Positions 47,366-64,000 of a DNA stretch of 64,000 bases are shown piece after piece. Origin of the DNA: an uncultured Gammaproteobacteria bacterium (lineage in GTDB: Bacteria; Patescibacteriota; Microgenomatia; CAZETR01; Amesbacteraceae); assembly GCA_964518565.1 (NCBI GenBank), contig CAZFGX010000001.1, forward strand, positions 905,553 through 969,552, in the 5' to 3' direction. The notes beneath the pieces are model-generated. The model saw only the letters and a list, made by a program, of their open reading frames with translations, was not told the origin of the DNA and made no database searches. The position numbers and the translations under genes were made by a program. Position 1 is the stretch's first letter; every line of letters begins with the position of its first letter.

Positions 47366-47407
47366 AAAAACATCTAATTTTACTCTACCAAATAAACCTC
47401 TAGCAAA

Positions 47408-48205
47408 TTAATGTAGATTTGCACCATACCCAAATGTATATAGCCAAGAAACAATTTGTCGAATTGGACTCGGCCATATAAGCGAAAACATATATCTATC
47501 TTCCACCATCCGTTTAGAATCTTCTATACGAATTACTGTCTCCATATCAGAGTGAATTCTGTGTTTCACCAGATCCCTATCTACATATACAAAACTTCCT
47601 GTCATTGCAGCGATTCTCCACCAAGCTTCCCAATCCAACGCGACTACCATATCATCGCGAAAAACAAATTTTCCCAATCGCGCTTTATGAAACATCACAC
47701 TTGGACATAAAATCGGACAACCCAATACCAACAAAGCCCGCTTCCGCCACAATTGACTAGCCCCACCCCAAATAAAAATTCCCGACAACAGCTGTTTAAT
47801 CAGCAAGCTAAAATATCCTCTCTTAGGATCAGTACGCAATTCAGAATATTTAGTAAAAATGATCAATGAGTTAGAACGTTGTCGTGCCGCCAACAAGCAA
47901 CATTCTGTATAGCTCGAATCATAGATATCATCTTGGTGCGCCAAGGTCACGTATTGTGTCTTGGCCAAAGCATAGGCTTTTGACCAATCTGGGCCAATAC
48001 CCTTCCCTGAATGGGGATACAATCTGAGACGATATTTTTCAGCAATTTTTTTTAAAAAAGGACTGGGAGTAGATGTAGAAATAAAAATTTCGCTTTTCAC
48101 TGTTTGTGCCAACAACGAGCGAATACAATCTTCCAAATAAACGGAGTCTTTATAAGCCAATACTACAAAACTATGTACGTAATCCATCAAAAACATATTA
48201 TACAA
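47408..48205 (-). CDS. glycosyltransferase family 2
   Basis: 265 aa. GT-A fold with DxD-like LAHQDDIYD. Confidence 0.65.
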   Translation of the reverse strand: MYNMFLMDYVHSFVVLAYKDSVYLEDCIRSLLAQTVKSEIFISTSTPSPFLKKIAEKYRLRLYPHSGKGIGPDWSKAYALAKTQYVTLAHQDDIYDSSYTECCLLAARQRSNSLIIFTKYSELRTDPKRGYFSLLIKQLLSGIFIWGGASQLWRKRALLVLGCPILCPSVMFHKARLGKFVFRDDMVVALDWEAWWRIAAMTGSFVYVDRDLVKHRIHSDMETVIRIEDSKRMVEDRYMFSLIWPSPIRQIVSWLYTFGYGANLH

Positions 48206-48229
48206 ACATTTTTGGTAAAATAATTCGTA

Positions 48230-48922
48230 ATGAAGCCAAAAATTTCGCTAATCATCCCCTGCTTTAACGAAGCAGAAAGCATAGGCTCAGTACTCAAGTC
48301 CATACCAAAAACAGCAAATATCGAAACAATAGTCATCGACAACAATTCACGAGACCAAACAGCAACTATTGCCAAAAAAATGGGAGCCAAAGTAATCTTT
48401 GAACCCAGACAAGGAAAGGGATATGCAGTGAGAACTGGAATAAAAAATATCGACAAAAAATCTGAATATGTTGTAATGCTTGACGGTGACAACACCTACA
48501 GACCAGAAGAAATATTTCGTCTAGTTGAACCACTACAAAATAATTTTTGCGATGTCATATTGGGTTCGCGCCTGAGTGGAAAAGTAAAACCAAACTCAAT
48601 GAAATTCCATAGCCGAGTCGGAAATTGGTTCTTTTCCTTTTTAGTTAGATTTTTTTACGTGACAAATGTTACAGATGTCCTCACGGGATACTTTGCCTGG
48701 AAAACTGATGCGATTAAAAAACTTCTTCCTGTATTAACCTCCCAAGGTTTTGAAATAGAAATGGAAATGATCACAAAAATGGCCAAAATGGGCTATGGCA
48801 TATACTCTGTTCCAATTACCTACGACAAAAGGATTGGCAAATCAAACCTAAGCAGTATAAAAGATGGAATAAAAATCTTTAAAGAATTTTTAAAAAATTT
48901 ACAATGGAAACCACAAAAATAA
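48230..48922 (+). CDS. glycosyltransferase family 2 (dolichyl-/polyprenyl-phosphate sugar transferase-like)
   Basis: 230 aa. ISLIIPCFNEAESI…MLDGDNTYRPEE. Confidence 0.8.
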   Translation: MKPKISLIIPCFNEAESIGSVLKSIPKTANIETIVIDNNSRDQTATIAKKMGAKVIFEPRQGKGYAVRTGIKNIDKKSEYVVMLDGDNTYRPEEIFRLVEPLQNNFCDVILGSRLSGKVKPNSMKFHSRVGNWFFSFLVRFFYVTNVTDVLTGYFAWKTDAIKKLLPVLTSQGFEIEMEMITKMAKMGYGIYSVPITYDKRIGKSNLSSIKDGIKIFKEFLKNLQWKPQK

Positions 48923-50109
48923 AAATTTTTTGGATAGTTCCACATTTAAATCTTTGGCAAGGGGGGTATAGATTTATCGCAGACTTATGCAAACAAACAT
49001 CAAATCAAATAACGACCACAATTGGTTACTCATCAGGAAAACAGGATTTAATTAGACATTTTGAACAAAGCAATGTCATAACAAAAAAAATTGGCGCTAT
49101 TGGAACAAATATCTTTTGGTATTGGGTACTAAGTCCACTATTTATTCTAGTTGAAATCATTTGTTCGTTAAAAACAACTAAAAATAACGACAAGGTAATC
49201 GCTTCACTTTTCCCCTCCATCTTCGTTTCCGCTGTATGCGCAAAAATATTTAAAAAAGATTTCATTCATTTTTGTTTTGTACCTTATCCATGGTTCTATG
49301 ACGAAAAATTTATCGACGAGCACAAATTTTATTTACGCGTCGCATTCAAGTTCTTAAGGTTTATATACACACCCTTAGATAAATGGGCTGCCAAATCTGC
49401 CAAAAAAACAATAACCCTGGATCCAATTAGTGCTGAACAAATCCATACGGTATATGGAATAAAAGCATTTCAAATTTCGTTAGGAATCGATACAAAACAT
49501 TTTCGGCCAATAAATAAAAAAAGAAATGAGATATATAAAAAATATTCATCTAATAAAATAATTTTTCATTCAACCGATTATTCACATTTAAAAAAAACAG
49601 AGAGAGTAATTGACATATTTACCGACGTTCAAAAAAAAATACCCAATACATTATTACTTATTAGTACTACCAGACCAGGAACCGCGGATGAAATTCGAAT
49701 TAAGAACAAAATAGTAAAACTAGGATTAAGCAAAAAAATTATTCTAACGGGAAAAATTGAGTATCAATTACTACCATACTACTTCTCAGCTGCAAGTTGT
49801 TACATTTCCCTTGCTGAAAATACCGCCATGTCAAATGTAAACTTACCTGTAAAGGAGGCGCTCGCCTGCGAAACAGCAGCAATAAGAACCCAAACCATAG
49901 TTCCAGATGTAACGAACAACAAATCCGGTTTCATAGTTAATCCCAATAACAAAAACCAAGTTATAAACAGAATCATGTATCTACTCAACAATCCGCTTCG
50001 TGCAAAAAAAATGGGCGTTTGGGGGAGGAAATCGATAATTCAACAATACTCATGGGAAAGAACTAGCGAAAAATTTGTTTCATTAATAGCTAATAACAAA
50101 AGTAATTAA
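48904..50109 (+). CDS. glycosyltransferase family 4 (GT-B)
   Basis: 401 aa. C-terminal GT-B region with the E-x7-E-like VKEALACETAAI. Confidence 0.6.
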   Translation: METTKIKIFWIVPHLNLWQGGYRFIADLCKQTSNQITTTIGYSSGKQDLIRHFEQSNVITKKIGAIGTNIFWYWVLSPLFILVEIICSLKTTKNNDKVIASLFPSIFVSAVCAKIFKKDFIHFCFVPYPWFYDEKFIDEHKFYLRVAFKFLRFIYTPLDKWAAKSAKKTITLDPISAEQIHTVYGIKAFQISLGIDTKHFRPINKKRNEIYKKYSSNKIIFHSTDYSHLKKTERVIDIFTDVQKKIPNTLLLISTTRPGTADEIRIKNKIVKLGLSKKIILTGKIEYQLLPYYFSAASCYISLAENTAMSNVNLPVKEALACETAAIRTQTIVPDVTNNKSGFIVNPNNKNQVINRIMYLLNNPLRAKKMGVWGRKSIIQQYSWERTSEKFVSLIANNKSN

Positions 50110-50842
50110 CTGTCCCCACAAGCAAAATATTACGGTAATGTTTTTTTAAAATTTTTGAGATTGAATTAAATTTATCACGATCAAGTGATTCAAAAAACAA
50201 ATATTTAGGCTTGTATTTAGAAAAGTCTAAGCCTATTAAGGCCTCAAGCTCATAACCTTCCAAATCAAGAGAGAGAAAATCTATTTGCCTAATTTTGCAC
50301 TGATCAAATAACTTAGTAAGAGTAATAGTAGGTACAGTATAAGAATATTTACGAACAAACGGGGACCCAGAATTCCAAAATGAAATATGATTTTTTATTT
50401 GAGCATCCGACATAGAATTTCTAACAACAGAAGACAAGCCTGAATAAAGTATTTCAATAAAAGAATTTTTGAAATACTTCGAAACCAAGGCAAATTGAAA
50501 AACCAAAGACCGGTTTCTATTCATTTTACATAACAATGCTTCTTTAGTATTTGGCTCAATTAATATTCCCCGCCACCCCAGTGCTTTTTCTAAAAAATAT
50601 GTATTACTTAAAAAAACCCCATTTGCAGCACCAGCTTCCACAAAAAAACCATCCCTAAAATTTAAGAATTTATTGAAAACGAGTTGAAAATCTTTTTCTT
50701 CGGTATGAGAAAAATAATAAATTCCAAATCGTTCAAAAAATGGCCGAAAGATAGTTACCTTTATCCAATAAATTCTATGAGGAATAAAATTCAATAGTAT
50801 TCGAAAAAAAATCTTCACGTTAATCAAAGCATAAATAATCAA
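50090..50842 (-). CDS. FkbM-family methyltransferase
   Basis: 250 aa. FVEAGAANGVFLSNTYFLEK…IDFLSLDLEGYE. Confidence 0.65.
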   Translation of the reverse strand: MIIYALINVKIFFRILLNFIPHRIYWIKVTIFRPFFERFGIYYFSHTEEKDFQLVFNKFLNFRDGFFVEAGAANGVFLSNTYFLEKALGWRGILIEPNTKEALLCKMNRNRSLVFQFALVSKYFKNSFIEILYSGLSSVVRNSMSDAQIKNHISFWNSGSPFVRKYSYTVPTITLTKLFDQCKIRQIDFLSLDLEGYELEALIGLDFSKYKPKYLFFESLDRDKFNSISKILKKHYRNILLVGTVNYFCY

Positions 50843-51554
50843 TGGAATTAATTTTTTGAATGGTTGAATAGTATCTTTTTAATAATGTGGCGACTTGTAC
50901 AAATTTATCTTTTGTTTGCGCCTCAAAAAGTAAAAATCTTGGTTTATATCTCGAAAAGTCTAAACCGGTCAACGCTTCATATTCGTAGCCTTCAACATCT
51001 AATGACAAAAAATCAATTTTTGAAATTCCACTTTGACGAATAATGTCATTCAAAGTCATCGCAGGCACAGTTCGCTCACCACGAACAGTCCATGGAGAAA
51101 CAGACCTAATTTTTTCAATATGAACCTTTTTCGATACATCATCCATCGCTCCACTAACCACACTCCCCAATCCCGCTTGAGAAATAGAAATAGAGGATCT
51201 TCGAAAATTTTTACCAACTAAAGCGCATGAAAAAACTGTCGAGCGCTTTCTATTTTTATTACACAAAGCAGCGTATTCAGGAATAGGTTCAACCAAAACA
51301 CCATGCCAATGACGAAATTTTTCCAGAAAATATGTATTACTAAATAAAACACCATCCCATGCCCCTGCTTCAAGGAAAACACCATTTTCAAAATTAAAAT
51401 GTTCATCAATTAATTTATCCAAACCCATTATTTCCATCCTTGAAAACCAAGTTAATCCAAACATTTCCGCAAAAGGTCTCAAAAACGCAGCCTTTATTCT
51501 ATAGTAAACATTAAACAAAACGGTAGAAAAGCGACCAGTTTTATTTATAGCCAT
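50820..51554 (-). CDS. FkbM-family methyltransferase (tandem paralog)
   Basis: 244 aa. FLEAGAWDGVLFSNTYFLEK…IDFLSLDVEGYE. About 50% identical to its neighbour. Confidence 0.65.
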   Translation of the reverse strand: MAINKTGRFSTVLFNVYYRIKAAFLRPFAEMFGLTWFSRMEIMGLDKLIDEHFNFENGVFLEAGAWDGVLFSNTYFLEKFRHWHGVLVEPIPEYAALCNKNRKRSTVFSCALVGKNFRRSSISISQAGLGSVVSGAMDDVSKKVHIEKIRSVSPWTVRGERTVPAMTLNDIIRQSGISKIDFLSLDVEGYEYEALTGLDFSRYKPRFLLFEAQTKDKFVQVATLLKRYYSTIQKINSIDYLCFD

Positions 51555-52953
51555 ACCACAAAAACAAATATTGCAAAATAAAAATATACATCAAAACAAA
51601 CAATAGAACCAAAATGAGATAATAAATTTTCATCCTTGAAGCCAAAATAGTAATTTTTGATTTTGCCGCAAATGGTGCAGCAGCTATTAACAACAAAGGT
51701 ACAAAATATTTACCTTGTACGCCATTTACCCACACGACATCTGCTGCGGTATTCGCTATAAATAAATACATATAAAGCAAGATAACCGACGAAACAACAC
51801 CAAAAACCAACAATCTTTTCTCTACTAAATAAAATGAAAATTTATCAACTACTCCATCCATCCACAATCCCAATACAGACATAAGTCCTAAAACAACAAC
51901 TCCCATTCCAAAATAAAAACGTACATCCAATCCTAGATAACCAAAAAATTCAGCCGGCAAAAAAGCAATAGTCATAGCAGATGTGTACAACGATGCTTTA
52001 ATAAAAATCAAAGGATGAAAAATTATTTGTTTTATTTGATACAACTGATCAAAACGGAAATCTGTGCCCTCTAGCAAATGCACATTTGATTCTTGAAAAA
52101 ACGTGTACTGATCCATCCGAGTGGCATTATTTACAGATGGATGAAACAAAAATACACTAGTCAAATAATAAAAAATTATTCCTAGAACCAAAATATTGAC
52201 TCCGATCAATAACTTTCTAAGCAAGAAAAATTTCTGAAAAAGTAAAAAGCTAAATACAAAAAAAATAGGGTAATAAAACGGTTTCAAAATAACTGCCGCT
52301 ATACCAGGCAAACAACACATCAACCACCATTTAGATATTGACCGAAAACGTATAAGTCTCAAAAAAACCGCAAACAATAAAAAAAGTCCCGGAGTTGAAA
52401 GTGAGTCATAACTAATAGTTGCAAAATGTAGTAAAACTACCGGCAATAAACCAAGCGCAAAAAATAGTCGTTTAAAATCAGGCGTAATACGAATCGCAGC
52501 AGCAACCAACAATAGACCAAATACTGAATTAAACACTCTTCCAAAATACAATTCATGAATTGGCGATAAACTAAAAAAATGAGCCAAAAAAATTCCAACT
52601 GCTGCTGCAGTATGACCATACAAAGGCGCTCCACAGACTAATGTCCTGACTGATTGATATGAAGAATCAGGCAGAGACTGGTATGAAAAAACTCGAGTCC
52701 AGTCAAATCCAGGCGGTGGAACAACCATAGATTTATCCAGTCCCATTTGCTCAATCAAATGTAATCGATTTTTTGAAATCAGATGCTGACCATCGTTACA
52801 AAAAACATGACCTTCTACCAATGCACTTGCAGCCAAATAATGTCTTTGCTCGTCAGGAATACGAAACGGAGGAATAAATATAGCAAAAAACACACAAGCC
52901 AAACCACCAAACACCAAATAAATGACAGGCAATTTTTTTTCAAAAACTCTCAT
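51541..52953 (-). CDS. DUF2142-like polytopic membrane protein (putative GT-C-type glycosyltransferase)
   Basis: 470 aa with more than ten TM segments. N-terminal PDEQRHY motif. Confidence 0.45.
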   Translation of the reverse strand: MRVFEKKLPVIYLVFGGLACVFFAIFIPPFRIPDEQRHYLAASALVEGHVFCNDGQHLISKNRLHLIEQMGLDKSMVVPPPGFDWTRVFSYQSLPDSSYQSVRTLVCGAPLYGHTAAAVGIFLAHFFSLSPIHELYFGRVFNSVFGLLLVAAAIRITPDFKRLFFALGLLPVVLLHFATISYDSLSTPGLFLLFAVFLRLIRFRSISKWWLMCCLPGIAAVILKPFYYPIFFVFSFLLFQKFFLLRKLLIGVNILVLGIIFYYLTSVFLFHPSVNNATRMDQYTFFQESNVHLLEGTDFRFDQLYQIKQIIFHPLIFIKASLYTSAMTIAFLPAEFFGYLGLDVRFYFGMGVVVLGLMSVLGLWMDGVVDKFSFYLVEKRLLVFGVVSSVILLYMYLFIANTAADVVWVNGVQGKYFVPLLLIAAAPFAAKSKITILASRMKIYYLILVLLFVLMYIFILQYLFLWYGYK

Positions 52954-55911: not shown

Positions 55912-55983
55912 AGCTAAAGTATACGGGACAAATGGTAAAATTAAGGCCTAAAACTAGGCTGTCGGAAGACACATTCACAATTT

Positions 55984-56055
55984 GCTCTCGTAGCTCAATG
56001 GATAGAGTAACAGTTTGCGGAACTGTTGATGCAGGTTCGATTCCTGCCGGGAGCA
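55984..56055 (+). tRNA. tRNA-Arg (anticodon reads GCG)
   Basis: GCUCUCG-UA-GCUC-AAUGGAUA-GAGU-A-ACAGU-UUGCGGA-ACUGU-UGAU-GCAGG-UUCGAUU-CCUGC-CGGGAGC-A. The D-arm matches E. coli tRNA-Arg. The 3' end is CCCA, so CCA is not cleanly encoded. Confidence 0.7.
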
Positions 56056-56065
56056 CCCAACCTTT

Positions 56066-56776: not shown

Positions 56777-57679
56777 TCACACCGACTTCTCTAGTCGCTG
56801 CTGGACTTTCAGCTCACAAATCTGACTACAAGAGCTCAAGTGTTTTAGCTCACAATTCTCACACCCCACAAACAACTCATCACATCCAAACGCCGCACAA
56901 TCAACCAATCTCGTAACACTCTTTTTACAATATATACATGTAGATATCACGACTGGATTTACTTTATTTACCGCCACATGCAATCTCTTATCAAACACAA
57001 ACATCTCACCCTCAAAATATTTCCCCCCCGTCTTTTCCCCATATTGAAAAATCCCCCCATGTAGTTGACGGACCTTTTTAAATCCCCTCTCTTTCAAATA
57101 AGCCGATGCCTTCTCGCATCTGACCCCACCCGTACAGTATGTCACCACTTGCTTGTCTTTATATTTACCCAAACTATTCTCTACAAAAGCTGGAAAATCT
57201 CTAAAATTATCCAGTTTCGGTGTAATCGCATTCTTAAACTTTCCTACACTCATCTCATAATCATTTCTAGCGTCAACCAGCACCACATCTTCACCGTTCT
57301 CATATAGCTTCTCCAGTTCCTCTGGTTCAATATAATCAGCCCTGTTGGCAATATCTACATCGGTTCCTGTCTTTTTAACCCCCAACGTCACGATTTCGTC
57401 TCTCACCACGACTCTCAATTTTGGAAACACTTGTTCGCCGGCATAAGACACCTTCCATTCCATATCCGCAAACTCTATTCTCATATTCGTCTCCTCCATA
57501 TATACTTCTACATTTTTCTCCTCACCCGCCACCGTCCCATTCATCCCTTCAGTCGATACGATTATCCTGCCTTTCAAACCCAACCGTTCACACAGTCCTC
57601 TCTGCCATCCACGCACCTCTTCCGGATTTTCCAAAGAAATATATTTGTAATATAGCAAAATTTTAAATTGGTTTACCAT
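56777..57679 (-). CDS. rhodanese-domain protein, TrhO/YceA (UPF0176) family
   Basis: Start moved to the internal ATG at 57679 (MVNQFKILLYYKY…). Rhodanese active-site region YCTGGVRCEKASAYL. C-terminal CxxC…C cluster. Confidence 0.7.
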   Translation of the reverse strand: MVNQFKILLYYKYISLENPEEVRGWQRGLCERLGLKGRIIVSTEGMNGTVAGEEKNVEVYMEETNMRIEFADMEWKVSYAGEQVFPKLRVVVRDEIVTLGVKKTGTDVDIANRADYIEPEELEKLYENGEDVVLVDARNDYEMSVGKFKNAITPKLDNFRDFPAFVENSLGKYKDKQVVTYCTGGVRCEKASAYLKERGFKKVRQLHGGIFQYGEKTGGKYFEGEMFVFDKRLHVAVNKVNPVVISTCIYCKKSVTRLVDCAAFGCDELFVGCENCELKHLSSCSQICELKVQQRLEKSV

Positions 57680-57732
57680 AATTTCATATTTTATCAGCTT
57701 CAAGGTAAAATACTCCAAACCAGTCCATTTCA

Positions 57733-57819
57733 GGAGAGGTCGCATAGTGGCCTAGTGCGGAGGTCTTGAAAACCTCTGTGGCGGCAACGTCACCGTGGGT
57801 TCGAATCCCACCCTCTCCG
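57733..57819 (+). tRNA. tRNA-Ser(UGA)
   Basis: GGAGAGG-UC-GCAU…anticodon loop CUUGAAA, long variable arm, GUGGGUUCGAAUCCCAC-CCUCUCC-G. Confidence 0.8.
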
Positions 57820-57839
57820 CAAAAAACCAAGCCACATCT

Positions 57840-57924
57840 GGAGGGGTCGCATAGTGGCCGAGTGCAGCGGTTTACTAAACCGCCATATCGCAAGATATCG
57901 CGAGTTCGAATCTCGCCCCCTCCG
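57840..57924 (+). tRNA. type II (Ser-like) tRNA whose anticodon reads ACU
   Basis: GGAGGGG-UC-GCAU-AGUGGCCGA-GUGC-A-GCGGU-UUACUAA-ACCGC, hairpin variable arm, GCGAG-UUCGAAU-CUCGC-CCCCUCC-G. A34 is unexpected for a bacterial tRNA-Ser (normally GCU). Confidence 0.55.
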
Positions 57925-58148
57925 CAGAAGGTCTTCGGTTGCTCCAAGACCCATCTACTATGCTCGATTAGCCCTATGTGGCTTGCTAAAAAGACGCTAA
58001 GAATCGCAAGTATCCCAAACATAGCCTGTAATGTATAAAATCGCCTAAATGGCCCTCAAGGTATTTGCGCTCGGTTCTAAGCTTTTGATGAAAAGAGCTG
58101 CTTTAGCCCTACGTTAGTGAAAAATCCTCGTTCTAATCTCGTTTTTCC

Positions 58149-58796
58149 TTACTTGAAGTTAAATGTGGGGAGTATTTGATCAGTAATTGCTTTATTTGCT
58201 GGAGTCGGAGGAAGAGTTGAGACAGAAAACAGCTTATTGCCTTTTAAAACGATAGTTATATATCGTGTTTTTGGTCCTAGAATAAGACCTTCAATTCCTT
58301 TATAGCCATCAATCGTAGTTTCTTTAATGCTCGCTGGATCCATTTCTGTTTTTGTTCGTTCTAAATCTTGTTCAGTCGCATCTTTATATTGTTCATATAA
58401 ACCATACATTTGATACTCAGGATTATTCTCTGTGCCTTTGGTTAGAAAGAACCCAGCAGTTCGGATGCTTCCTGCGTTATCAGCAATTTCTTTACGGTAA
58501 ACGAGATCTTTGGGATGTTGAAGGGACAATCCGATTTCATCTATCATTTCTGATTGCAGATCGGGGCTGGTAGGTACTTGCTTAGTAAAGTTCCTGCCGT
58601 CAGGAGTTTTACATTGCTCAGGATAGCTCTCCATGATGGGGTATCCCGCTTGAGCACATTCCTCAAAAGTACTAATACTCTGTACTTTTGAAATTTTCTG
58701 ATATTTCCACACAACAACACTAGCGATAAGGAGAACGACGAAAACTGCGATGAGTTTGATATTTTTATTCATCATCATACGTATGTATTGTATCAA
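58149..58796 (-). CDS. membrane-anchored hypothetical protein
   Basis: 215 aa with an N-terminal TM. Confidence 0.4.
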   Translation of the reverse strand: MIQYIRMMMNKNIKLIAVFVVLLIASVVVWKYQKISKVQSISTFEECAQAGYPIMESYPEQCKTPDGRNFTKQVPTSPDLQSEMIDEIGLSLQHPKDLVYRKEIADNAGSIRTAGFFLTKGTENNPEYQMYGLYEQYKDATEQDLERTKTEMDPASIKETTIDGYKGIEGLILGPKTRYITIVLKGNKLFSVSTLPPTPANKAITDQILPTFNFK

Positions 58797-58802
58797 TTTT
58801 TG

Positions 58803-60116
58803 TCAGATAAGGCTAAGCTGTCTGTCTCTCAGGCTGAATTTCGAATTTACACCTTTGAGGATTTTGAGTCTTTCCTCTGGAGTTCCAAATTGAAGAACGT
58901 GGAGTAAATATTCTTTGAGCATTTCGGTATGTGTTTCGCTATATTCTCTCGGACTCTGGTCGCCTGTGTTATGAGGAGTGATTTCTACTCTGGGTATATA
59001 GTCACTAATCACGTTTGCTTTGAAATGTTGCAGTCTTTTTACTTCTACTTCAAACTCTTGCATCAGATATGAGGTGTTTAGTTTGATTTTTGGTAGATAA
59101 CCGATTAGTTGTTTGATCAACTCTTGCTCTGTAATGTATGGCTCGGGGCAATCATATTTCTTGATGCGATTACAGTGATAATAAATGTGCGAATTTACTA
59201 TGTTTGCTTTCGTTCTTCGGTATTTTAGTTCAGCGGTTACACTTCCACCGCACGACCCGCAGATACAAATTTTCTTGAACGGAAACAGTTGTTTATTCCA
59301 TTGTCTCGGTGCAACTTGAAGTTGAATTTGCACCCTTTCAAATAACGCTTTTGTGATGAGTGGTTCATAGGTTCCTTTGTACCAGATATTTCCGTACTGA
59401 AACTCGCCGTAGTAAAAAGCGTTTTGGAGAGCAACGTAGATTTTACTCAGAGGCATTTTGCATCCACTCTTTGTGGTAAATCCTATGTCATCCAACCATT
59501 TCTTGACCATCCGTCCTGAGAATCCTTGATCGGCAACCTTATGAAATATTTGTTTGATAACTGGTGCTCGTTCAGGATCGAGTTCCACCGTTGATATCCG
59601 GTTTACTTTTAGGACATTTCTATACCCAATTGGTGCAACTCCAGGTCTGATTCCAATCTGACATTTATTGCGTAACCCTCGTTTAACATTCACACCTCGA
59701 TTATCATTCTCCAGCTTTGCTTGTGAGCAGAGAATCATCAGTAAGAATTTCTCGTTGGGATTATCGGTAAACGATTGAGAGTAGGTTTTGATATGGGTCA
59801 GTTTTCCTTGATCCATTAAATCAACAATTCGTCCTAAATCTCCAGCATTTCGAGATAACCGATCAGGAGCCCATGTGAGAATACTGTTGTATCGTCCTTC
59901 AGTTACTCCAAGCAGAAGATTGTTAAACTCTGGTCGTTGGCCCGATTCTTTGGCTGAGTGGCTTTCTGTAATTGTCTCAGTAATATCAAGTTTTTCTCGC
60001 TTTGCAAGAAGTTGCATTTCTTTAAGTTGACCGTCAATCGACATTGCTTGCCGTTCATCCGATTCGCTTGATTTACGGGCGTATAAGCAGTATTTCAGCC
60101 TGGTAGCATCTTTCAT
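58803..60116 (-). CDS. large serine recombinase (resolvase/invertase catalytic domain + recombinase domain + zinc ribbon)
   Basis: Start moved to MKDATRLKYCLYARKSSESDE… (catalytic Ser in YARKSS). Downstream DRLSRN and a C-terminal CxxC…C ribbon. 438 aa. Confidence 0.8.
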   Translation of the reverse strand: MKDATRLKYCLYARKSSESDERQAMSIDGQLKEMQLLAKREKLDITETITESHSAKESGQRPEFNNLLLGVTEGRYNSILTWAPDRLSRNAGDLGRIVDLMDQGKLTHIKTYSQSFTDNPNEKFLLMILCSQAKLENDNRGVNVKRGLRNKCQIGIRPGVAPIGYRNVLKVNRISTVELDPERAPVIKQIFHKVADQGFSGRMVKKWLDDIGFTTKSGCKMPLSKIYVALQNAFYYGEFQYGNIWYKGTYEPLITKALFERVQIQLQVAPRQWNKQLFPFKKICICGSCGGSVTAELKYRRTKANIVNSHIYYHCNRIKKYDCPEPYITEQELIKQLIGYLPKIKLNTSYLMQEFEVEVKRLQHFKANVISDYIPRVEITPHNTGDQSPREYSETHTEMLKEYLLHVLQFGTPEERLKILKGVNSKFSLRDRQLSLI

Positions 60117-60207
60117 CAGGTACAAGGTACCGCAAAGGTTCTGGAAGTCTAGTCGGGGAATACTATAACCCCGCGATGAAAACCTCCAACCTTTAAGGAC
60201 TCTCTTT

Positions 60208-60402
60208 TTACTTACTAGTCCAAGCAAAAAAATGAGTTATTAAAGTAAAACCGAGGGCAATCCATCCGACAATTGCTGGTAAAAATGCATTGCCAACCAG
60301 GTAGTGCTGCAATAAAATTGCCGCACCAAATCCTCCAACTGCGTGGGAAAGACTTGATAACATAACGTGCTTTGACCAATAATTTATAGGTTTTTCAATC
60401 AT
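60208..60402 (-). CDS. small two-TM membrane protein (paralog of 62091..62285)
   Basis: 64 aa. YWSKHVMLSSLSHAVGGFGAAILLQ…, about 65% identical to its paralog. Confidence 0.45.
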   Translation of the reverse strand: MIEKPINYWSKHVMLSSLSHAVGGFGAAILLQHYLVGNAFLPAIVGWIALGFTLITHFFAWTSK

Positions 60403-60404
60403 TT

Positions 60405-60917
60405 TTATACACCTCCTTTCTTAATTTTATTTTTGTTATAATTTTTCAGTATTCTCCAGGAAATATATGTAGAGAAAATTGCTACGGTTATGCTTGTAAA
60501 TATATCAATCGGATGATGCACCTCTGCAAGTATCCGCGCAAAACCCACAAGTAATCCTAATAGAAATAAGACTGATCCTAAGCGTTTATTAAAAACGAAT
60601 ACTATCGAGGCAATACTCATCACAAGTAATGTGTGATCTGATGGAAATCCATTATTTGCTGCATGAGGAATAAGAGGCTTTACATGTTCGACTACGAAAG
60701 GTCGTGGATTATAGAACAACCTCCCAAGAATATTGGCAATAATAAAGGCAAGAGGTAAGGTAAGAAGCACTAATTTGAGGATATCTTTTCTTGCTGTTTG
60801 GTTTGTAAAAACTACTGCAGTGATTGCAATCAAAGTGATGACTATATAAAGATAATTTGCTAAAAGAATGATAATTGAGTTAATCATAGTTCTTAAGAGT
60901 AATTGCCTCATCCGCAA
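60405..60917 (-). CDS. PAP2-family phosphatase (type 2 phosphatidic acid/undecaprenyl-PP phosphatase-like)
   Basis: 170 aa. Membrane protein with the PSDH and SxH…R-type motifs (GFPSDHTLLV). Confidence 0.65.
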   Translation of the reverse strand: MRMRQLLLRTMINSIIILLANYLYIVITLIAITAVVFTNQTARKDILKLVLLTLPLAFIIANILGRLFYNPRPFVVEHVKPLIPHAANNGFPSDHTLLVMSIASIVFVFNKRLGSVLFLLGLLVGFARILAEVHHPIDIFTSITVAIFSTYISWRILKNYNKNKIKKGGV

Positions 60918-62094
60918 CTACTTTTCCCCATGTTTGCTTCATAAAAAAGAGAGCAAACGCATGAAGTTTCATCAGTTTCATAACTTGATTTCTTGCCCAT
61001 AATTCAAAGGGAGACCCTGGAACAACTGTACGCAGAAGCTTAATATTTTTCTGTTTTTGTTCTACAAATGGCCGAAGCTCTTTTTCATACGCTGGAAAAG
61101 CAATCTTGTAATCACCATCCGCTGCTTTTAGCTCGCCAGCGAGGATATATGCACCGACCATTGCCAACTGTGAGCCATAACCAGTAAGTAGGGTTGGACA
61201 GTATCCTGCATCTCCGACTAAAGCAACGCGTCCTTTTGACCAAGTATCCATCTGCACTTGACTGACAACGTCAAAGAAGAAATCCTTAGTTGTTTTCATG
61301 GATTCAAGCAAGCTTGGTATCTCCCATTCCTTCTCTGGAAATAATTCAGAAAGTAGCTGTTTTTGCCTCTCGGTATCATGGAAATCATATTTCAGTTGTG
61401 TTTCATGTCTCAGGGTAAAAACGGCTATAACCCCTCCCTCTTTCAAGTGGTAGAGTGTCACGCTTTTGCCAGGCATGGTATAAAAACTAACTTCCCCATA
61501 GCGCGATGGGTGATTGGGTATAGTAAATGCTGCAACATAATGCCCCATATACTGCTTGAAGCGTGATTCATCACCAAAGACAAGCGTACGTACTTCTGAA
61601 TGTAGCCCATCAGCTCCTATAACCAAATCGAATTTTCTGCTCTTGCCGCTTTCAAAGGTAGCGTTTACGTCCTCAGCATCTTCAGCAAGCTTCTTTATTG
61701 GATCTCCAAAAATGTAGTCAACAGTATCTTTTGTATAGTCATATAAAATCCGTGCCAAGTCGGCCCTTCGCATGTAGGTAATCTGCCGACCTGTAATTTC
61801 TTTTGTCAGCTCTCCCACATTCATGACTGATATGGGTTTATTGTCCTTATCAACAAAAGTCCATTGATACCCTTCAAACCGTTCTTTCTCTACCTGAGGC
61901 CACACACCCATTCGTTCAAGCACTTCGACCCCTCTTTTGCCATCCAGTCCAAAGATATATCCGCCTTGTCTGGGAACAGGTGATTTCTCAACTACAGTCG
62001 GGTTGAAGCCGTATTTTTTAAGCCAATAGGCAAGTGTTGGGCCAGCAATACCAGCTCCTGAGATGAGTATGTTTTTATTTGTCATATTTTTCAC
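60880..62094 (-). CDS. FAD-dependent monooxygenase (group A flavin monooxygenase, TetX/UbiH-like fold)
   Basis: 404 aa. N-terminal GAGIAGPTLAYWL dinucleotide fold, DLVIGADGLHSEVR, GDAGYCPTLLTGYGSQLA. Confidence 0.8.
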   Translation of the reverse strand: MKNMTNKNILISGAGIAGPTLAYWLKKYGFNPTVVEKSPVPRQGGYIFGLDGKRGVEVLERMGVWPQVEKERFEGYQWTFVDKDNKPISVMNVGELTKEITGRQITYMRRADLARILYDYTKDTVDYIFGDPIKKLAEDAEDVNATFESGKSRKFDLVIGADGLHSEVRTLVFGDESRFKQYMGHYVAAFTIPNHPSRYGEVSFYTMPGKSVTLYHLKEGGVIAVFTLRHETQLKYDFHDTERQKQLLSELFPEKEWEIPSLLESMKTTKDFFFDVVSQVQMDTWSKGRVALVGDAGYCPTLLTGYGSQLAMVGAYILAGELKAADGDYKIAFPAYEKELRPFVEQKQKNIKLLRTVVPGSPFELWARNQVMKLMKLHAFALFFMKQTWGKVVADEAITLKNYD

Positions 62095-62285
62095 TTACTC
62101 CTATGAGCGATTACATGAGTTATCAGGGTAAACCCGAGGGCTACCCACCCAACTACAACTGGCACGAATACATCACCAGCTATATAGTTCTGCAAAACCA
62201 CTGCTGCTCCAAAACCTCCGGCGGTATGGGACAAACTTGACAAAACAACATGCTTTGACCAATATTTAATAGCATTTTCAAACAT
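62091..62285 (-). CDS. small two-TM membrane protein (paralog of 60208..60402)
   Basis: 64 aa. Overlaps the upstream monooxygenase stop by 4 bp. Confidence 0.45.
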   Translation of the reverse strand: MFENAIKYWSKHVVLSSLSHTAGGFGAAVVLQNYIAGDVFVPVVVGWVALGFTLITHVIAHRSK

Positions 62286-62302
62286 TTTTATTCACCTCCT
62301 TC

Positions 62303-63517
62303 CTATAACTTTTCATAGTCTTTTAAGACAAATGATTCACGAAACATTTTCCCATAAGTCATTCTTGCTACAGGGCGAGACAGTAAAGGCGAAGATAAAA
62401 GTTTTAATACATGATTTCTTATCCAGAGTAAAATAGCGCTATCTGGGACAAGTTGCATTCCTGTTCCTCGTGCTTCTTTTGTTTTTTGTTCTACAAAGGG
62501 CTTAAATTCTTGCTCGTATGCAGCAAAGGCGGTCTTATAATCACCGTCTGCTGCTTTGAGTTCTCCTGCCAATATATATGCTCCGATGAGAGATAAACTC
62601 ACACCCCATGCAGATAAAGGGGTGGGGTATCCTGCATCGCCAACAAGAACAACCCGACCTTTTGACCACTTGTCAATTTGAATAAGATTGGCTGAATCAA
62701 ACAGAAAATCCTGCACTTTCTTTGCTTGCTCAAGAATTTCTGGCATCGGCTTCCAGTGAAATTTTGAGAACTCTTCTGCAAACAATTTCTTTTGCGTATC
62801 AATATCGTGGTGATCAATTTTAAATTTTTCAGTTCGTCTAAAAACTGCGTAGACCATTGCGCGGTTATTGGCAAAGCCAAAGAGGGAGATAAATTTTCCA
62901 GGTGTGGTAAATGAGATGTTTGTCCCGATTTTTGTTGGGTAGTCTACCCAAAACGAAACTTGATAGTATCCCATGTAATGGGCTATGTGGGACTCTTCTC
63001 CAAAGACTAAAGAACGTACCTTTGAGTGAATACCATCTGCTCCTATAACAAGATCGAATCTCCTTGTTTTTCCGCTTTCCAATACAACCTCTACACTGTC
63101 TGTGTCTTCTTTCATTGATTGAATAGAGTCACCAAAAATATATTCCACATTTTCTTTTGTTTTGTCATATAAAATCTTGGCCAAATCCACTCTTAAAATC
63201 TGGGTTTGTGCTCGACTTGGGTCATCAAAAGTTTCTTTAAACATCCGCTCTATATCCACTTTTGCTGCAACTTCATTTGCTTCATTCATAAACAACATCT
63301 CTTTGGGACTATATTGTTTTTCTCTGACTTGATCCATGATACCCATTTGCTCTGCAACCTTTATGCCAGTCCCACGAAAATCGACTAAATATCCGCCTTC
63401 ACGAGGTTTAGGTGCATGTTCTACCACAGTAGGGTTAAACCCATACTTTTTGAGCCAATACGCCAAAGATGGGCCTGCAATACCTGCTCCTGAAATAAGA
63501 ATGTTTTTGTTTGTCAT
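62303..63517 (-). CDS. FAD-dependent monooxygenase (paralog of 60880..62094)
   Basis: Start moved to MTNKNILISGAGIAGPSLAYWL…. Same motif set; about 50% identical to its paralog. Confidence 0.8.
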   Translation of the reverse strand: MTNKNILISGAGIAGPSLAYWLKKYGFNPTVVEHAPKPREGGYLVDFRGTGIKVAEQMGIMDQVREKQYSPKEMLFMNEANEVAAKVDIERMFKETFDDPSRAQTQILRVDLAKILYDKTKENVEYIFGDSIQSMKEDTDSVEVVLESGKTRRFDLVIGADGIHSKVRSLVFGEESHIAHYMGYYQVSFWVDYPTKIGTNISFTTPGKFISLFGFANNRAMVYAVFRRTEKFKIDHHDIDTQKKLFAEEFSKFHWKPMPEILEQAKKVQDFLFDSANLIQIDKWSKGRVVLVGDAGYPTPLSAWGVSLSLIGAYILAGELKAADGDYKTAFAAYEQEFKPFVEQKTKEARGTGMQLVPDSAILLWIRNHVLKLLSSPLLSRPVARMTYGKMFRESFVLKDYEKL

Positions 63518-63518
63518 A

Positions 63519-64000
63519 CTATGATGCCCTACTTCGTAGTAGCCGAACGCCATTTAACACCACAAGCACTTCACCAAATTCATCAATAAATAATATGTGA
63601 CTAACAGATAACAGCATAAAGACTGCCAAAATCATCATGCTCACTTGTAGGACAGTTGAAAAGAGTAGGTTTTGTTTAACGATCTGCTTTGCATAATAGG
63701 AGAGGCGAATTGCTTCAGGAATTTTGCTTAAGTCATCACCCATGATGGCAACGTCGGCCGCTTCCAGTGCTGCGTCAGTTCCGGCTGTTCCCATTGCCAT
63801 ACCCACAGAGCTTTCCGCAAGAGCCGGCGCATCATTAATGCCATCACCAACCATGACTACATGACCATATTTCTTTTTCAACTCCTTAATTTTTTCTACT
63901 TTTTGATCTGGCTTGAGTTCAGCAAAAATCGTATCTACCCCAAGTGACCTACCTATCTGTTCTCCAACTAAGGTATGGTCACCAGTAAGCATGACTGTTT
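63519..64000 (-). CDS. heavy-metal-translocating P-type ATPase, C-terminal part (N-terminus beyond window)
   Basis: The hinge motif VGDGINDAPAL and the final two TM helices. The gene clearly continues past coordinate 64000. Confidence 0.85.
   Translation of the reverse strand, partial: TVMLTGDHTLVGEQIGRSLGVDTIFAELKPDQKVEKIKELKKKYGHVVMVGDGINDAPALAESSVGMAMGTAGTDAALEAADVAIMGDDLSKIPEAIRLSYYAKQIVKQNLLFSTVLQVSMMILAVFMLLSVSHILFIDEFGEVLVVLNGVRLLRSRAS

Follow-up and report, generated by a model that had tools for sequence, protein, structure and literature searches.

How does a stretch of chromosome that ends in two tRNA-Ser genes come to continue with a large serine recombinase, metal-efflux genes and flavin monooxygenases, and is that continuation foreign DNA? 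The window, that is, the whole 64,000-nucleotide (nt) stretch of the patescibacterial contig CAZFGX010000001.1 analysed here, runs into this region in its last 6 kb. The DNA from 57,926 to beyond 65,850 is very likely a recently integrated mobile element, inserted by its serine recombinase at the 3' end of tRNA-Ser(ACT). An earlier note, made from the letters of the window alone, had proposed a tRNA-Ser-associated genomic island with a large serine recombinase, and this proposal is borne out by the five tRNA-Ser isoacceptors used as targets, by left and right junctions (attL and attR) defined across a family of relatives, by tandem junctions of attP type and by a recombinase composition that is not that of the host. 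The supporting features, namely composition, gene content, conserved ends, the variety of target tRNAs and the tandem junctions, are directly observed. The tRNA-proximal part is built as follows.

57,733 to 57,820, plus strand: tRNA-Ser(TGA), an unoccupied host gene that neighbours the target (ARAGORN; Rfam tRNA, 56.9 bits).
57,840 to 57,925, plus strand: tRNA-Ser(ACT), the target tRNA (ARAGORN, Rfam).
57,926 to 58,148, no strand assigned: the 'C region', a conserved non-coding element end that comprises the P' side of the attachment site and about 200 nt more.
58,149 to 58,796, minus strand: open reading frame (ORF) for a 215-amino-acid (aa), membrane-anchored protein with an N-terminal hydrophobic helix, in an optional slot between recombinase and C region.
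58,803 to 60,116, minus strand: large serine recombinase (integrase), 437 aa from the ATG at 60,116 (Pfam, PHROG).

The attL junction is intact in the window. The tRNA-Ser(ACT) gene runs to its last six bases, CTCCGC (57,920-57,925), the element begins at 57,926, and the integrase gene is at the end nearest the tRNA. The six tRNAs described earlier, including tRNA-Ser(TGA) and tRNA-Ser(ACT), were all recovered with ARAGORN and Rfam. For comparison, 79 related loci (numbered with the prefix L below) were collected by a metagenome scan. In about 30 aligned attL junctions the T and acceptor stems of the tRNA are host-specific and intact up to CTCCGC, and conserved element sequence follows. The C region is 72-95% identical across at least 30 loci beside different tRNA-Ser genes, and it always begins directly past the terminal CTCCGC of the tRNA. 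Depending on the locus, the tRNA-Ser next to the element has the anticodon GGA, TGA, CGA, GCT or ACT, and where all four isoacceptors are visible (within the roughly 20 kb fetched) the element-adjacent one is present just once. Occupancy varies, with different tRNA-Ser genes used in different genomes and many in these loci unoccupied. Downstream of unoccupied tRNA-Ser genes, three of them in the window, the sequence is unrelated to the C region, and that beyond tRNA-Ser(TGA) (57,733-57,820) differs from it accordingly.

No coding or RNA function was found for the C region: it holds no conserved ORF, some members contain stops, the three codon phases are equally variable, RNAalifold gave no covariation support (covariation term -0.28, 1 of 31 pairs compensatory), and a scan with Rfam returned tRNAs and no other RNA family. 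A hairpin beside the tRNA (GGTCTT..AAGACC) was considered as a terminator and rejected, as it is not kept in variants, and no terminator or promoter consensus above chance was seen in the region.

Several minor observations concern the tRNA genes themselves. Bacteria normally carry tRNA-Ser(GCT) where ACT stands here. The ACT anticodon (A34) occurs in the window (57,840-57,925) and in four related loci (L041 12,172-12,259; L042 21,126-21,213; L063 1,703-1,790; L090 1,934-2,019). Host genes of the window use AGT 185, AGC 87 and AGA 136 times. The tRNA-Arg at 55,983-56,059 has the anticodon GCG instead of ACG. In L017 (3,270-3,493) the C region directly follows a 13-nt repeat of the 3' end of tRNA-Ser(GCT), and 130 nt of inserted sequence lie between that repeat and the tRNA gene itself. 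Short direct repeats of the gene's own 3' end stand 14-50 nt downstream of two unoccupied tRNA-Ser(TGA) genes (L027 14,554-14,641 and L031 11,772-11,856) and may be scars of other elements.

The far end of the element is defined by other members of the family. In L014, L057 and L064 no tRNA precedes the C region; what precedes it is ..GGTTCCAGACC-N6-8-CTCCGC, a sequence named the P arm here, which resembles the 3' half of tRNA-Ser, GGTTCGAATCC-N7-CTCCGC. The P-arm motif GGTTCCAGACC..TGCTCCGC occurs once each in fifteen loci (L024, L025, L027, L028, L029, L031, L032, L036, L039, L049, L053, L055, L058, L064 and L065), oriented as predicted and always on the far side of the recombinase. The conserved part measures about 45 nt and has CTCCGC as its exact end; matches on the opposite strand, which are ascribed to chance, lack CTCCGC. 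Just beyond several P arms stand host genes of the conserved clusters c5 and c6, which are also found beside the tRNA cluster of the window. Elements with both ends visible measure 2.5 kb (L064), 4.7-6.0 kb (L025, L027, L028, L029, L031, L049, L065), about 8 kb (L032, L036) and 11.4 kb (L024). Three junction forms are thus distinguished: attL, a tRNA ending in CTCCGC followed by the C region; attR, a P arm ending in CTCCGC followed by host DNA; and the attP type, a P arm ending in CTCCGC followed by the C region.

From the attP-type junctions of L014, L057 and L064 an attP can be reconstructed as ATGGG-N13-AGACC-CAGNTGCTCCGCATAA-GGTCT-N15-CCCAT, an imperfect inverted repeat centred in CTCCGC, the core of about 6 nt common to attP and the tRNA. 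This build appears to match that usual for serine integrases, with a short core shared with the tRNA and no long end repeat. The earlier note had suggested a search for a direct repeat of the tRNA-Ser 3' end; none was found inside the window, and a long one is not expected, because the shared core spans only about 6 nt and the far end is an element-borne, tRNA-like mimic.

These junctions suggest the following course of events. The free circular element would carry attP in the order P arm, CTCCGC, C region. Its P arm, ..TATGGGAYA-N4-GGTTCCAGACC-CAGNTG-, would imitate the T arm and acceptor 3' half of a tRNA-Ser, GGTTCGAATCC-NNCCCT-, and the recombinase would pair attP with the real 3' end of any tRNA-Ser gene, whose CTCCGC would thus serve as attB. 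Strand exchange would take place inside or at the edge of the shared CTCCGC, with a crossover centre near CT-CC-GC if the AGACC/GGTCT symmetry places it correctly. After integration the tRNA would remain intact and wholly host-derived, followed by C region, recombinase and cargo (attL), while the P arm would be left at the far junction (attR). Cargo would be placed between the P arm and R, the recombinase leader described below. The likeness of a resident P arm to a tRNA-Ser end would also let later elements insert into it and so build tandem arrays; the entry of a second element there should leave a junction of attP type. Integration of attP into attB by the recombinase, the exact crossover position and movement of the element between cells are in this model read from sequence and remain conditional on it.

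Two loci deserve mention beside this model. L014 (9,070-10,142) contains three tandem P-arm copies spaced by about 450-620 nt, the innermost joined to the C region, which looks like a record of repeated insertions and deletions. In L019 (11,563) the C region adjoins no tRNA; its neighbour is GGGTTGTTCAAGAACACCGC, apparently a pseudo-site.

The recombinase contains, in order, the domains PF00239 Resolvase (69.3 bits, cut-off 23.3), PF07508 Recombinase (44.4, cut-off 21.1) and PF13408 Zn_ribbon_recom (30.6, cut-off 25.3), and it matches the integrase family phrog_95 (9e-58). Scores against NCBIfam equivalogs are far under their cut-offs (best, CcrB at 89 bits against 900; XisF at 60 against 375), and the only relative of solved structure is a 169-aa fragment (E = 9e-6). 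No candidate for a recombination directionality factor was recognised. The recombinase had been described as the first gene past the tRNAs, a place that belongs to the 215-aa ORF at 58,149-58,796. This protein has no Pfam, PHROG or NCBIfam match; its homologues (cluster c22) fill the same slot in L035, L037, L039 and L041, and elsewhere the slot holds a different ORF (c13) or none.

Beyond the recombinase, the element carries the following cargo. The sequence past the end of the window comes from the 5.8-kb Logan contig L001, which is 100% identical to window positions 60,051-64,000 and extends to 65,850.

60,208 to 60,402, minus strand: 64-aa ORF with hydrophobic stretches (gene call on L001), paralogue of 62,091-62,285.
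60,405 to 60,917, minus strand: PAP2-family phosphatase resembling undecaprenyl-diphosphatase (Pfam PAP2, 62 bits; PRK11837, 71.5 bits, under its cut-off of 229).
60,880 to 62,085, minus strand: group A flavin monooxygenase 1, 401 aa (FAD_binding_3).
62,091 to 62,285, minus strand: 64-aa ORF with hydrophobic stretches, paralogue of 60,208-60,402.
62,303 to 63,517, minus strand: group A flavin monooxygenase 2, 404 aa (FAD_binding_3), about 48% identical to monooxygenase 1.
63,519 to 64,000, minus strand: 3' part (last 157 aa in the window) of a P1B-type heavy-metal ATPase, the full gene of 627 aa reaching to about 65,402.
About 65,399 to 65,719, minus strand, outside the window: ArsR/SmtB regulator (HTH_metalloreg, 94 bits, cut-off 55).

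Every gene from 58,149 through the ArsR/SmtB regulator lies on the minus strand. Pfam and NCBIfam returned the cargo that had been claimed, namely two monooxygenases, a PAP2 protein and a P-type ATPase whose gene runs past the end of the window, and the full 627-aa ATPase on L001 belongs to the P1B group (TIGR01525, 587 bits, cut-off 346; TIGR01512, 482, cut-off 313). Taken together, the genes are probably a detoxification or resistance set. The two 64-aa ORFs had been missed earlier. They form a direct repeat, D1, of 217 nt and 73% identity (60,205-60,421 and 62,088-62,304), each copy lying downstream of a monooxygenase; read by eye they would be two-helix membrane proteins, and the one at 60,208-60,402 has no family match.

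The monooxygenases had been proposed for a check against tetracycline-destructase and rifampicin-monooxygenase families, which gave a divided answer. Relatives of the destructases they are: the best solved relatives of monooxygenase 1 are Tet(56) (E = 2e-66) and Tet(50) (7e-66), the best PDB match of monooxygenase 2 is Tet(56) (213 bits across residues 3-347), and compared with the destructases Tet(47)-Tet(56) and TetX the two align with Tet(56), Tet(50), Tet(51) and Tet(55) over residues 3-347 at 204-228 bits, both keeping the FAD-binding GAGIAGP and GDAGY motifs. However, the destructase model tet_destruct (NF033476, cut-off 550) is not reached (267.6 bits for monooxygenase 1, 256.2 for monooxygenase 2), nor is rif_monoox (NF033145, cut-off 800; 33.4 and 40.7 bits), and the C-terminal 55 residues do not align with the destructases. 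Scores are higher, 345-370 bits, on the uncharacterised PRK07588 model, and PDB chains labelled 6-hydroxynicotinate 3-monooxygenase score about as well as destructases. The two enzymes are therefore best regarded as relatives of the tetracycline destructases, not demonstrable members of that family. Any substrate named for the cargo enzymes would be a prediction from their sequences, and that of the monooxygenases is not assignable because of the scores under the destructase cut-off, the unaligned C-terminus and the similar scores of the 6-hydroxynicotinate 3-monooxygenase chains.

Related cargo (ArsR, P1B ATPase, one or two monooxygenases, PAP2) was seen at 75-85% nucleotide identity in L096 (4,259-12,633) and L098 (3,546-8,896), where it sits inside larger metal-resistance regions with a Cu ATPase, CsoR, DsbD and a CDF transporter. 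In L096 the two monooxygenases abut, and the 64-aa genes are absent. No recombinase, R, P or att sequences accompany the modules in these two loci; the recurrence of the module without them suggests that the cargo of the window was captured from such a region. A search for the cargo junction in IMG/VR gave no match.

In other members of the family the cargo is unrelated: a his operon, an MFS transporter, a nucleoside hydrolase, a Fic-MerR pair, glycosyltransferases, an archaeo-eukaryotic primase (AEP) with helicase, a reverse transcriptase, type I restriction-modification genes, or a set of ParB-methylase and small and large terminase (TerS, TerL) genes. In L012 (600-9,950 of a 995-kb contig) a tRNA-His and a complete histidine biosynthesis operon, hisG to hisE, lie between an XRE gene and the recombinase; this operon is possibly cargo, which would be striking for a Patescibacteria genome.

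The terminase genes raise the alternative of a complete temperate phage, whose integrase end this block would be, in place of a cargo island. In about 20 related loci one or more ParB-N6 methylases, a small terminase-like protein and a large terminase (phrog_38, 1e-80) lie upstream of the recombinase, commonly with an XRE-type regulator; in L024 and L058 the methylase/TerS module falls within the att-bounded element, and IMG/VR lists four terminase-type contigs as viral. Yet the annotated subset of ORFs contains, across all the loci, no recognisable portal, capsid, tail or lysis gene, and many complete att-bounded members span just 2.5-8 kb and hold cargo only. In the window's own copy the 7.9 kb seen are likewise cargo only, no terminase, portal, capsid or tail gene being found in 57.9-65.85 kb, and none of the 120 best TerL matches lies on its 1.0-Mb contig. 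A prophage is thus an unlikely account of the block, and an integrated cargo element the favoured one.

Several points nevertheless weigh against the integration model. The P arm of the window's own element was not found up to 65,850; the element must therefore exceed 7.9 kb and end outside the available sequence, which agrees with the earlier statement that the island end lies outside the window. No empty site was found in a GTDB scan with TrhO, the flanking host gene, whose relatives belong to Saccharimonadales or other Patescibacteria assemblies, the nearest being 54-66% identical and without conserved synteny. The C region, at 160-220 nt, is much longer than an att arm requires, an excess that the model leaves without a role. 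The B' half-sites show no conservation, an uncommon trait among large serine recombinases. Current activity of the element is at most presumed. Finally, the link from host to cargo over 57.9-60.05 kb rests on the window's own assembly, as the independent Logan contigs stop at the tRNAs or within the recombinase.

This last point bears on the possibility of an assembly chimera, in which the element cargo of another organism was joined through the conserved recombinase, C region or tRNA sequence. The core of the element is 82-95% identical between co-occurring genomes, short-read contigs end at the tRNA-Ser genes (L099 and L100, found via the host c5 protein) and 65 nt inside the recombinase (L001), and a mis-join would likewise give the total lack of amelioration that is seen. 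However, all of the window belongs to one contig of 1,001,365 nt, a length that fits a complete patescibacterial genome, the junction between host-specific tRNA-Ser(ACT) and C region is exactly the one seen in about 30 other loci, and L001, being 100% identical to the window, ties the cargo to the 5' end of the recombinase, that is, to the same recombinase allele. A mis-join is accordingly judged quite improbable, and a genuine insertion at tRNA-Ser(ACT) remains preferred.

Whether the recombinase might instead be a domesticated host gene, inherited vertically beside tRNA-Ser in an immobile block, can be weighed from its conservation. In the best of the 79 loci the recombinase is 93-99% identical in protein and 80-89% in DNA, and against 16 relatives it shows 136-189 synonymous and 5-37 non-synonymous codon differences, an excess that indicates strong purifying selection. 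Copies in many metagenomes, sampled by separate projects, are 97-99% identical to it in protein and 86-89% in DNA. Very high amino-acid conservation (97-99%) with many synonymous changes, and the constant position next to tRNA-Ser, would suit a domesticated gene. Similarity to the window is nevertheless confined to the recombinase, about 57 nt upstream of it (R) and the 160-220 nt between it and tRNA-Ser (the C region); further upstream the sequence is locus-specific, so that the conserved synteny of the block, which the earlier note had named as evidence against an island, is absent. Five tRNA-Ser isoacceptors are used within unrelated host flanks, the far ends are defined at a variable distance of 2.5-11.4 kb, tandem arrays and attP-type junctions exist, one insertion occupies the non-tRNA pseudo-site of L019, and the composition is foreign in the window's host. 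Domestication is on these grounds very improbable, and the recombinase is better seen as the integrase of a mobile element.

The composition of the DNA changes at the same place. In 2-kb windows the plus-strand GC skew is about -0.2 to -0.4 across most of 1-57 kb and +0.01 to -0.14 beyond 58 kb. Among host ORFs the plus-strand skew at third codon positions (GC3 skew) has a median of -0.57 (range -0.93 to -0.17, n = 72), with medians of -0.55 for the 18 ORFs on the plus strand and -0.59 for the 54 on the minus strand; being equal on both coding strands, the bias of the host is one of the replication strand and not of the coding strand. The nine island ORFs from 58,149 to 65,719, a set that includes about 1.85 kb taken from the identical Logan contig past the window end, range from -0.25 to +0.12 (Mann-Whitney p = 1.3e-6 against the host). 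A two-segment maximum-likelihood scan puts the change point at 57,733, at the tRNA-Ser pair (log-likelihood ratio 63; 2-lnL interval 57,602-57,840). The earlier claim of a shift in strand composition near 58.1 kb therefore stands, the shift being real and far beyond window-size noise, and uniform composition, which would have spoken against an island, is not what the ORFs display. The description of that shift as a switch of the plus strand from C/A-rich to G/T-rich held in part: the C-richness of the host is lost, but the skew goes to about 0 and the strand does not become clearly G-rich.

The recombinase has a coding-strand GC3 skew of -0.11, close to the mean of -0.06 in 16 relatives, where the host would lead one to expect +0.57 for that strand, and its differences from relatives show no excess of G over C. 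As the island is without the extreme strand bias of the host and the recombinase has the composition of its relatives, the insertion would be recent when measured against the pace of the host's mutational bias. A replication origin or terminus, or another boundary in the chromosome, in place of foreign DNA is the least likely cause of the change, for although the very strong host skew must switch somewhere in the genome and just about 7.8 kb are visible past the change point, such a switch predicts inversion to about +0.3 (GC3 about +0.57) where about 0 is observed (-0.25 to +0.12 in the nine ORFs), the change falls within 200 nt of an att junction defined independently from other genomes, and the recombinase composition is that of relatives in other hosts.

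A GC3 skew with a median of -0.57 is unusually strong for a bacterium. This replication-strand asymmetry is extreme throughout 1-57,700, with that median on both strands and a whole-sequence GC skew of about -0.3; in the other Patescibacteria loci examined, the skew reaches at most about +/-0.3, in single 1-kb windows.

Insertion into tRNA genes is normally the work of tyrosine integrases, and as an island the element is ordinary; what is unusual is the targeting of a tRNA by a serine recombinase with a tRNA-mimic arm. It shares with the classical tRNA-associated islands, those of P4 type and others that use tyrosine integrases, insertion at a tRNA 3' end, a tRNA-proximal integrase gene, variable cargo, deviant composition and tandem accretion at the same tRNA. 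It differs from them in its large serine recombinase, in sharing about 6 nt (CTCCGC) in place of a long direct repeat of the tRNA 3' end, and in that the tRNA is not rebuilt from element DNA, the far end being a conserved, element-borne tRNA-like mimic. Phage and integrative and conjugative element (ICE) serine integrases (phiC31, Bxb1, TP901-1, CcrAB of SCCmec) have the same domain set of Resolvase, Recombinase and zinc ribbon, an imperfect inverted-repeat attP (here ATGGG..AGACC, core, GGTCT..CCCAT) and a short core common to attP and attB; here, unlike there, the target is the end of a tRNA gene and the B' side is not conserved. In the prophages and satellites of Mycobacterium it is tyrosine integrases that occupy tRNA sites, and the serine integrases insert at other places (PMC10654092).

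The closest concept is that of the tycheposons of Prochlorococcus and other marine bacteria, whose recombinases are of the tyrosine class in 910 of 937 elements and in those associated with tRNAs (Hackl et al., bioRxiv 10.1101/2020.12.28.424599). Both are tRNA-targeting integrative elements of streamlined genomes, modular, with cargo and terminase (satellite-like) forms that share one integration module and stack beside the tRNA. The present elements differ in their Patescibacteria hosts, in their serine recombinase, in the use of one integrase type for all tRNA-Ser isoacceptors, and in the restriction of replication genes (AEP primase-helicase) to few members, these genes having been seen solely in L032, L033 and L055. 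Literature searches returned no description of a tRNA-Ser-targeting serine-recombinase family with a tRNA-mimic arm, which is not proof of novelty.

The recombinase family comprises at least 7,900 clusters at 90% identity (E <= 1e-80), and each of the few matches with a named source comes from Patescibacteria, among them Curtissbacteria (76% identity) and Roizmanbacteria (72%). At 45-54% identity, more distant members occupy the 3' ends of tRNA-Lys, tRNA-Arg and tRNA-Trp. A broader proposal, somewhat short of probable, is that these elements form an undescribed and very large family of Patescibacteria, also called the Candidate Phyla Radiation (CPR), in which a tRNA-mimic attP fits all tRNA-Ser isoacceptors, sister clades use tRNA-Lys, tRNA-Arg and tRNA-Trp, and the far end serves as a landing pad for tandem arrays. 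Examples at the Lys, Arg and Trp genes, with recombinases 47-54% identical, are L067 (11,358-11,431), L076 (11,359-11,432) and L074 (11,670-11,742). The Lys and Arg members have a common end sequence of their own, CACATGCTAA.TCAGGTGACTGA.TGGCAT, followed by a terminator-like hairpin.

Patescibacteria have genomes of about 1 Mb and few recognised mobile elements, and how they acquire genes is poorly known. If the proposal is true, the family could be a main route of gene gain for these tiny-genome bacteria, for cargo ranging from metal and drug detoxification to a histidine operon (L012). It would also offer a ready-made attP, attB and integrase as a candidate tool for engineering CPR bacteria, in which genetic manipulation is very difficult. 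The attachment sites read here already give a concrete, testable model of tRNA targeting by a serine integrase, and two short motifs would allow horizontally acquired genes to be mapped in CPR genomes. In the window itself, the metal-efflux and monooxygenase genes are very likely recent imports and do not belong to core metabolism.

A further conserved sequence, R, occurs in two copies.

60,114 to 60,169, minus strand: R2, a leader or promoter-like stretch of about 57 nt, conserved before the recombinase (alignment of 22 loci; nhmmer E = 4e-12).
About 65,793 to 65,847 (L001 4-58), outside the window: R1, a second copy before the ArsR operon (nhmmer E = 4e-11).

R1 and R2 bracket the cargo, and the same order of R, cargo and R is found in L019, L029, L044 and L048. 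R had been considered for the far end of the element, but the true P arm showed otherwise, and R is internal. Its reverse complement, GAAGTCCAGAC.CA.GAT.CT, resembles the P arm. One may speculate that R is a leader bound by the recombinase, which would allow autoregulation, or a secondary site.

Within the host part of the window, a low-GC block stands out at 47,400-52,000, with a GC content of 0.29-0.36 against about 0.44 and a weaker skew (-0.10 to -0.19 in 2-kb windows over 47-51 kb). It encodes glycosyltransferases, Methyltransf_21 proteins and a DUF2142 protein, and looks like a variable cell-envelope glycan locus.

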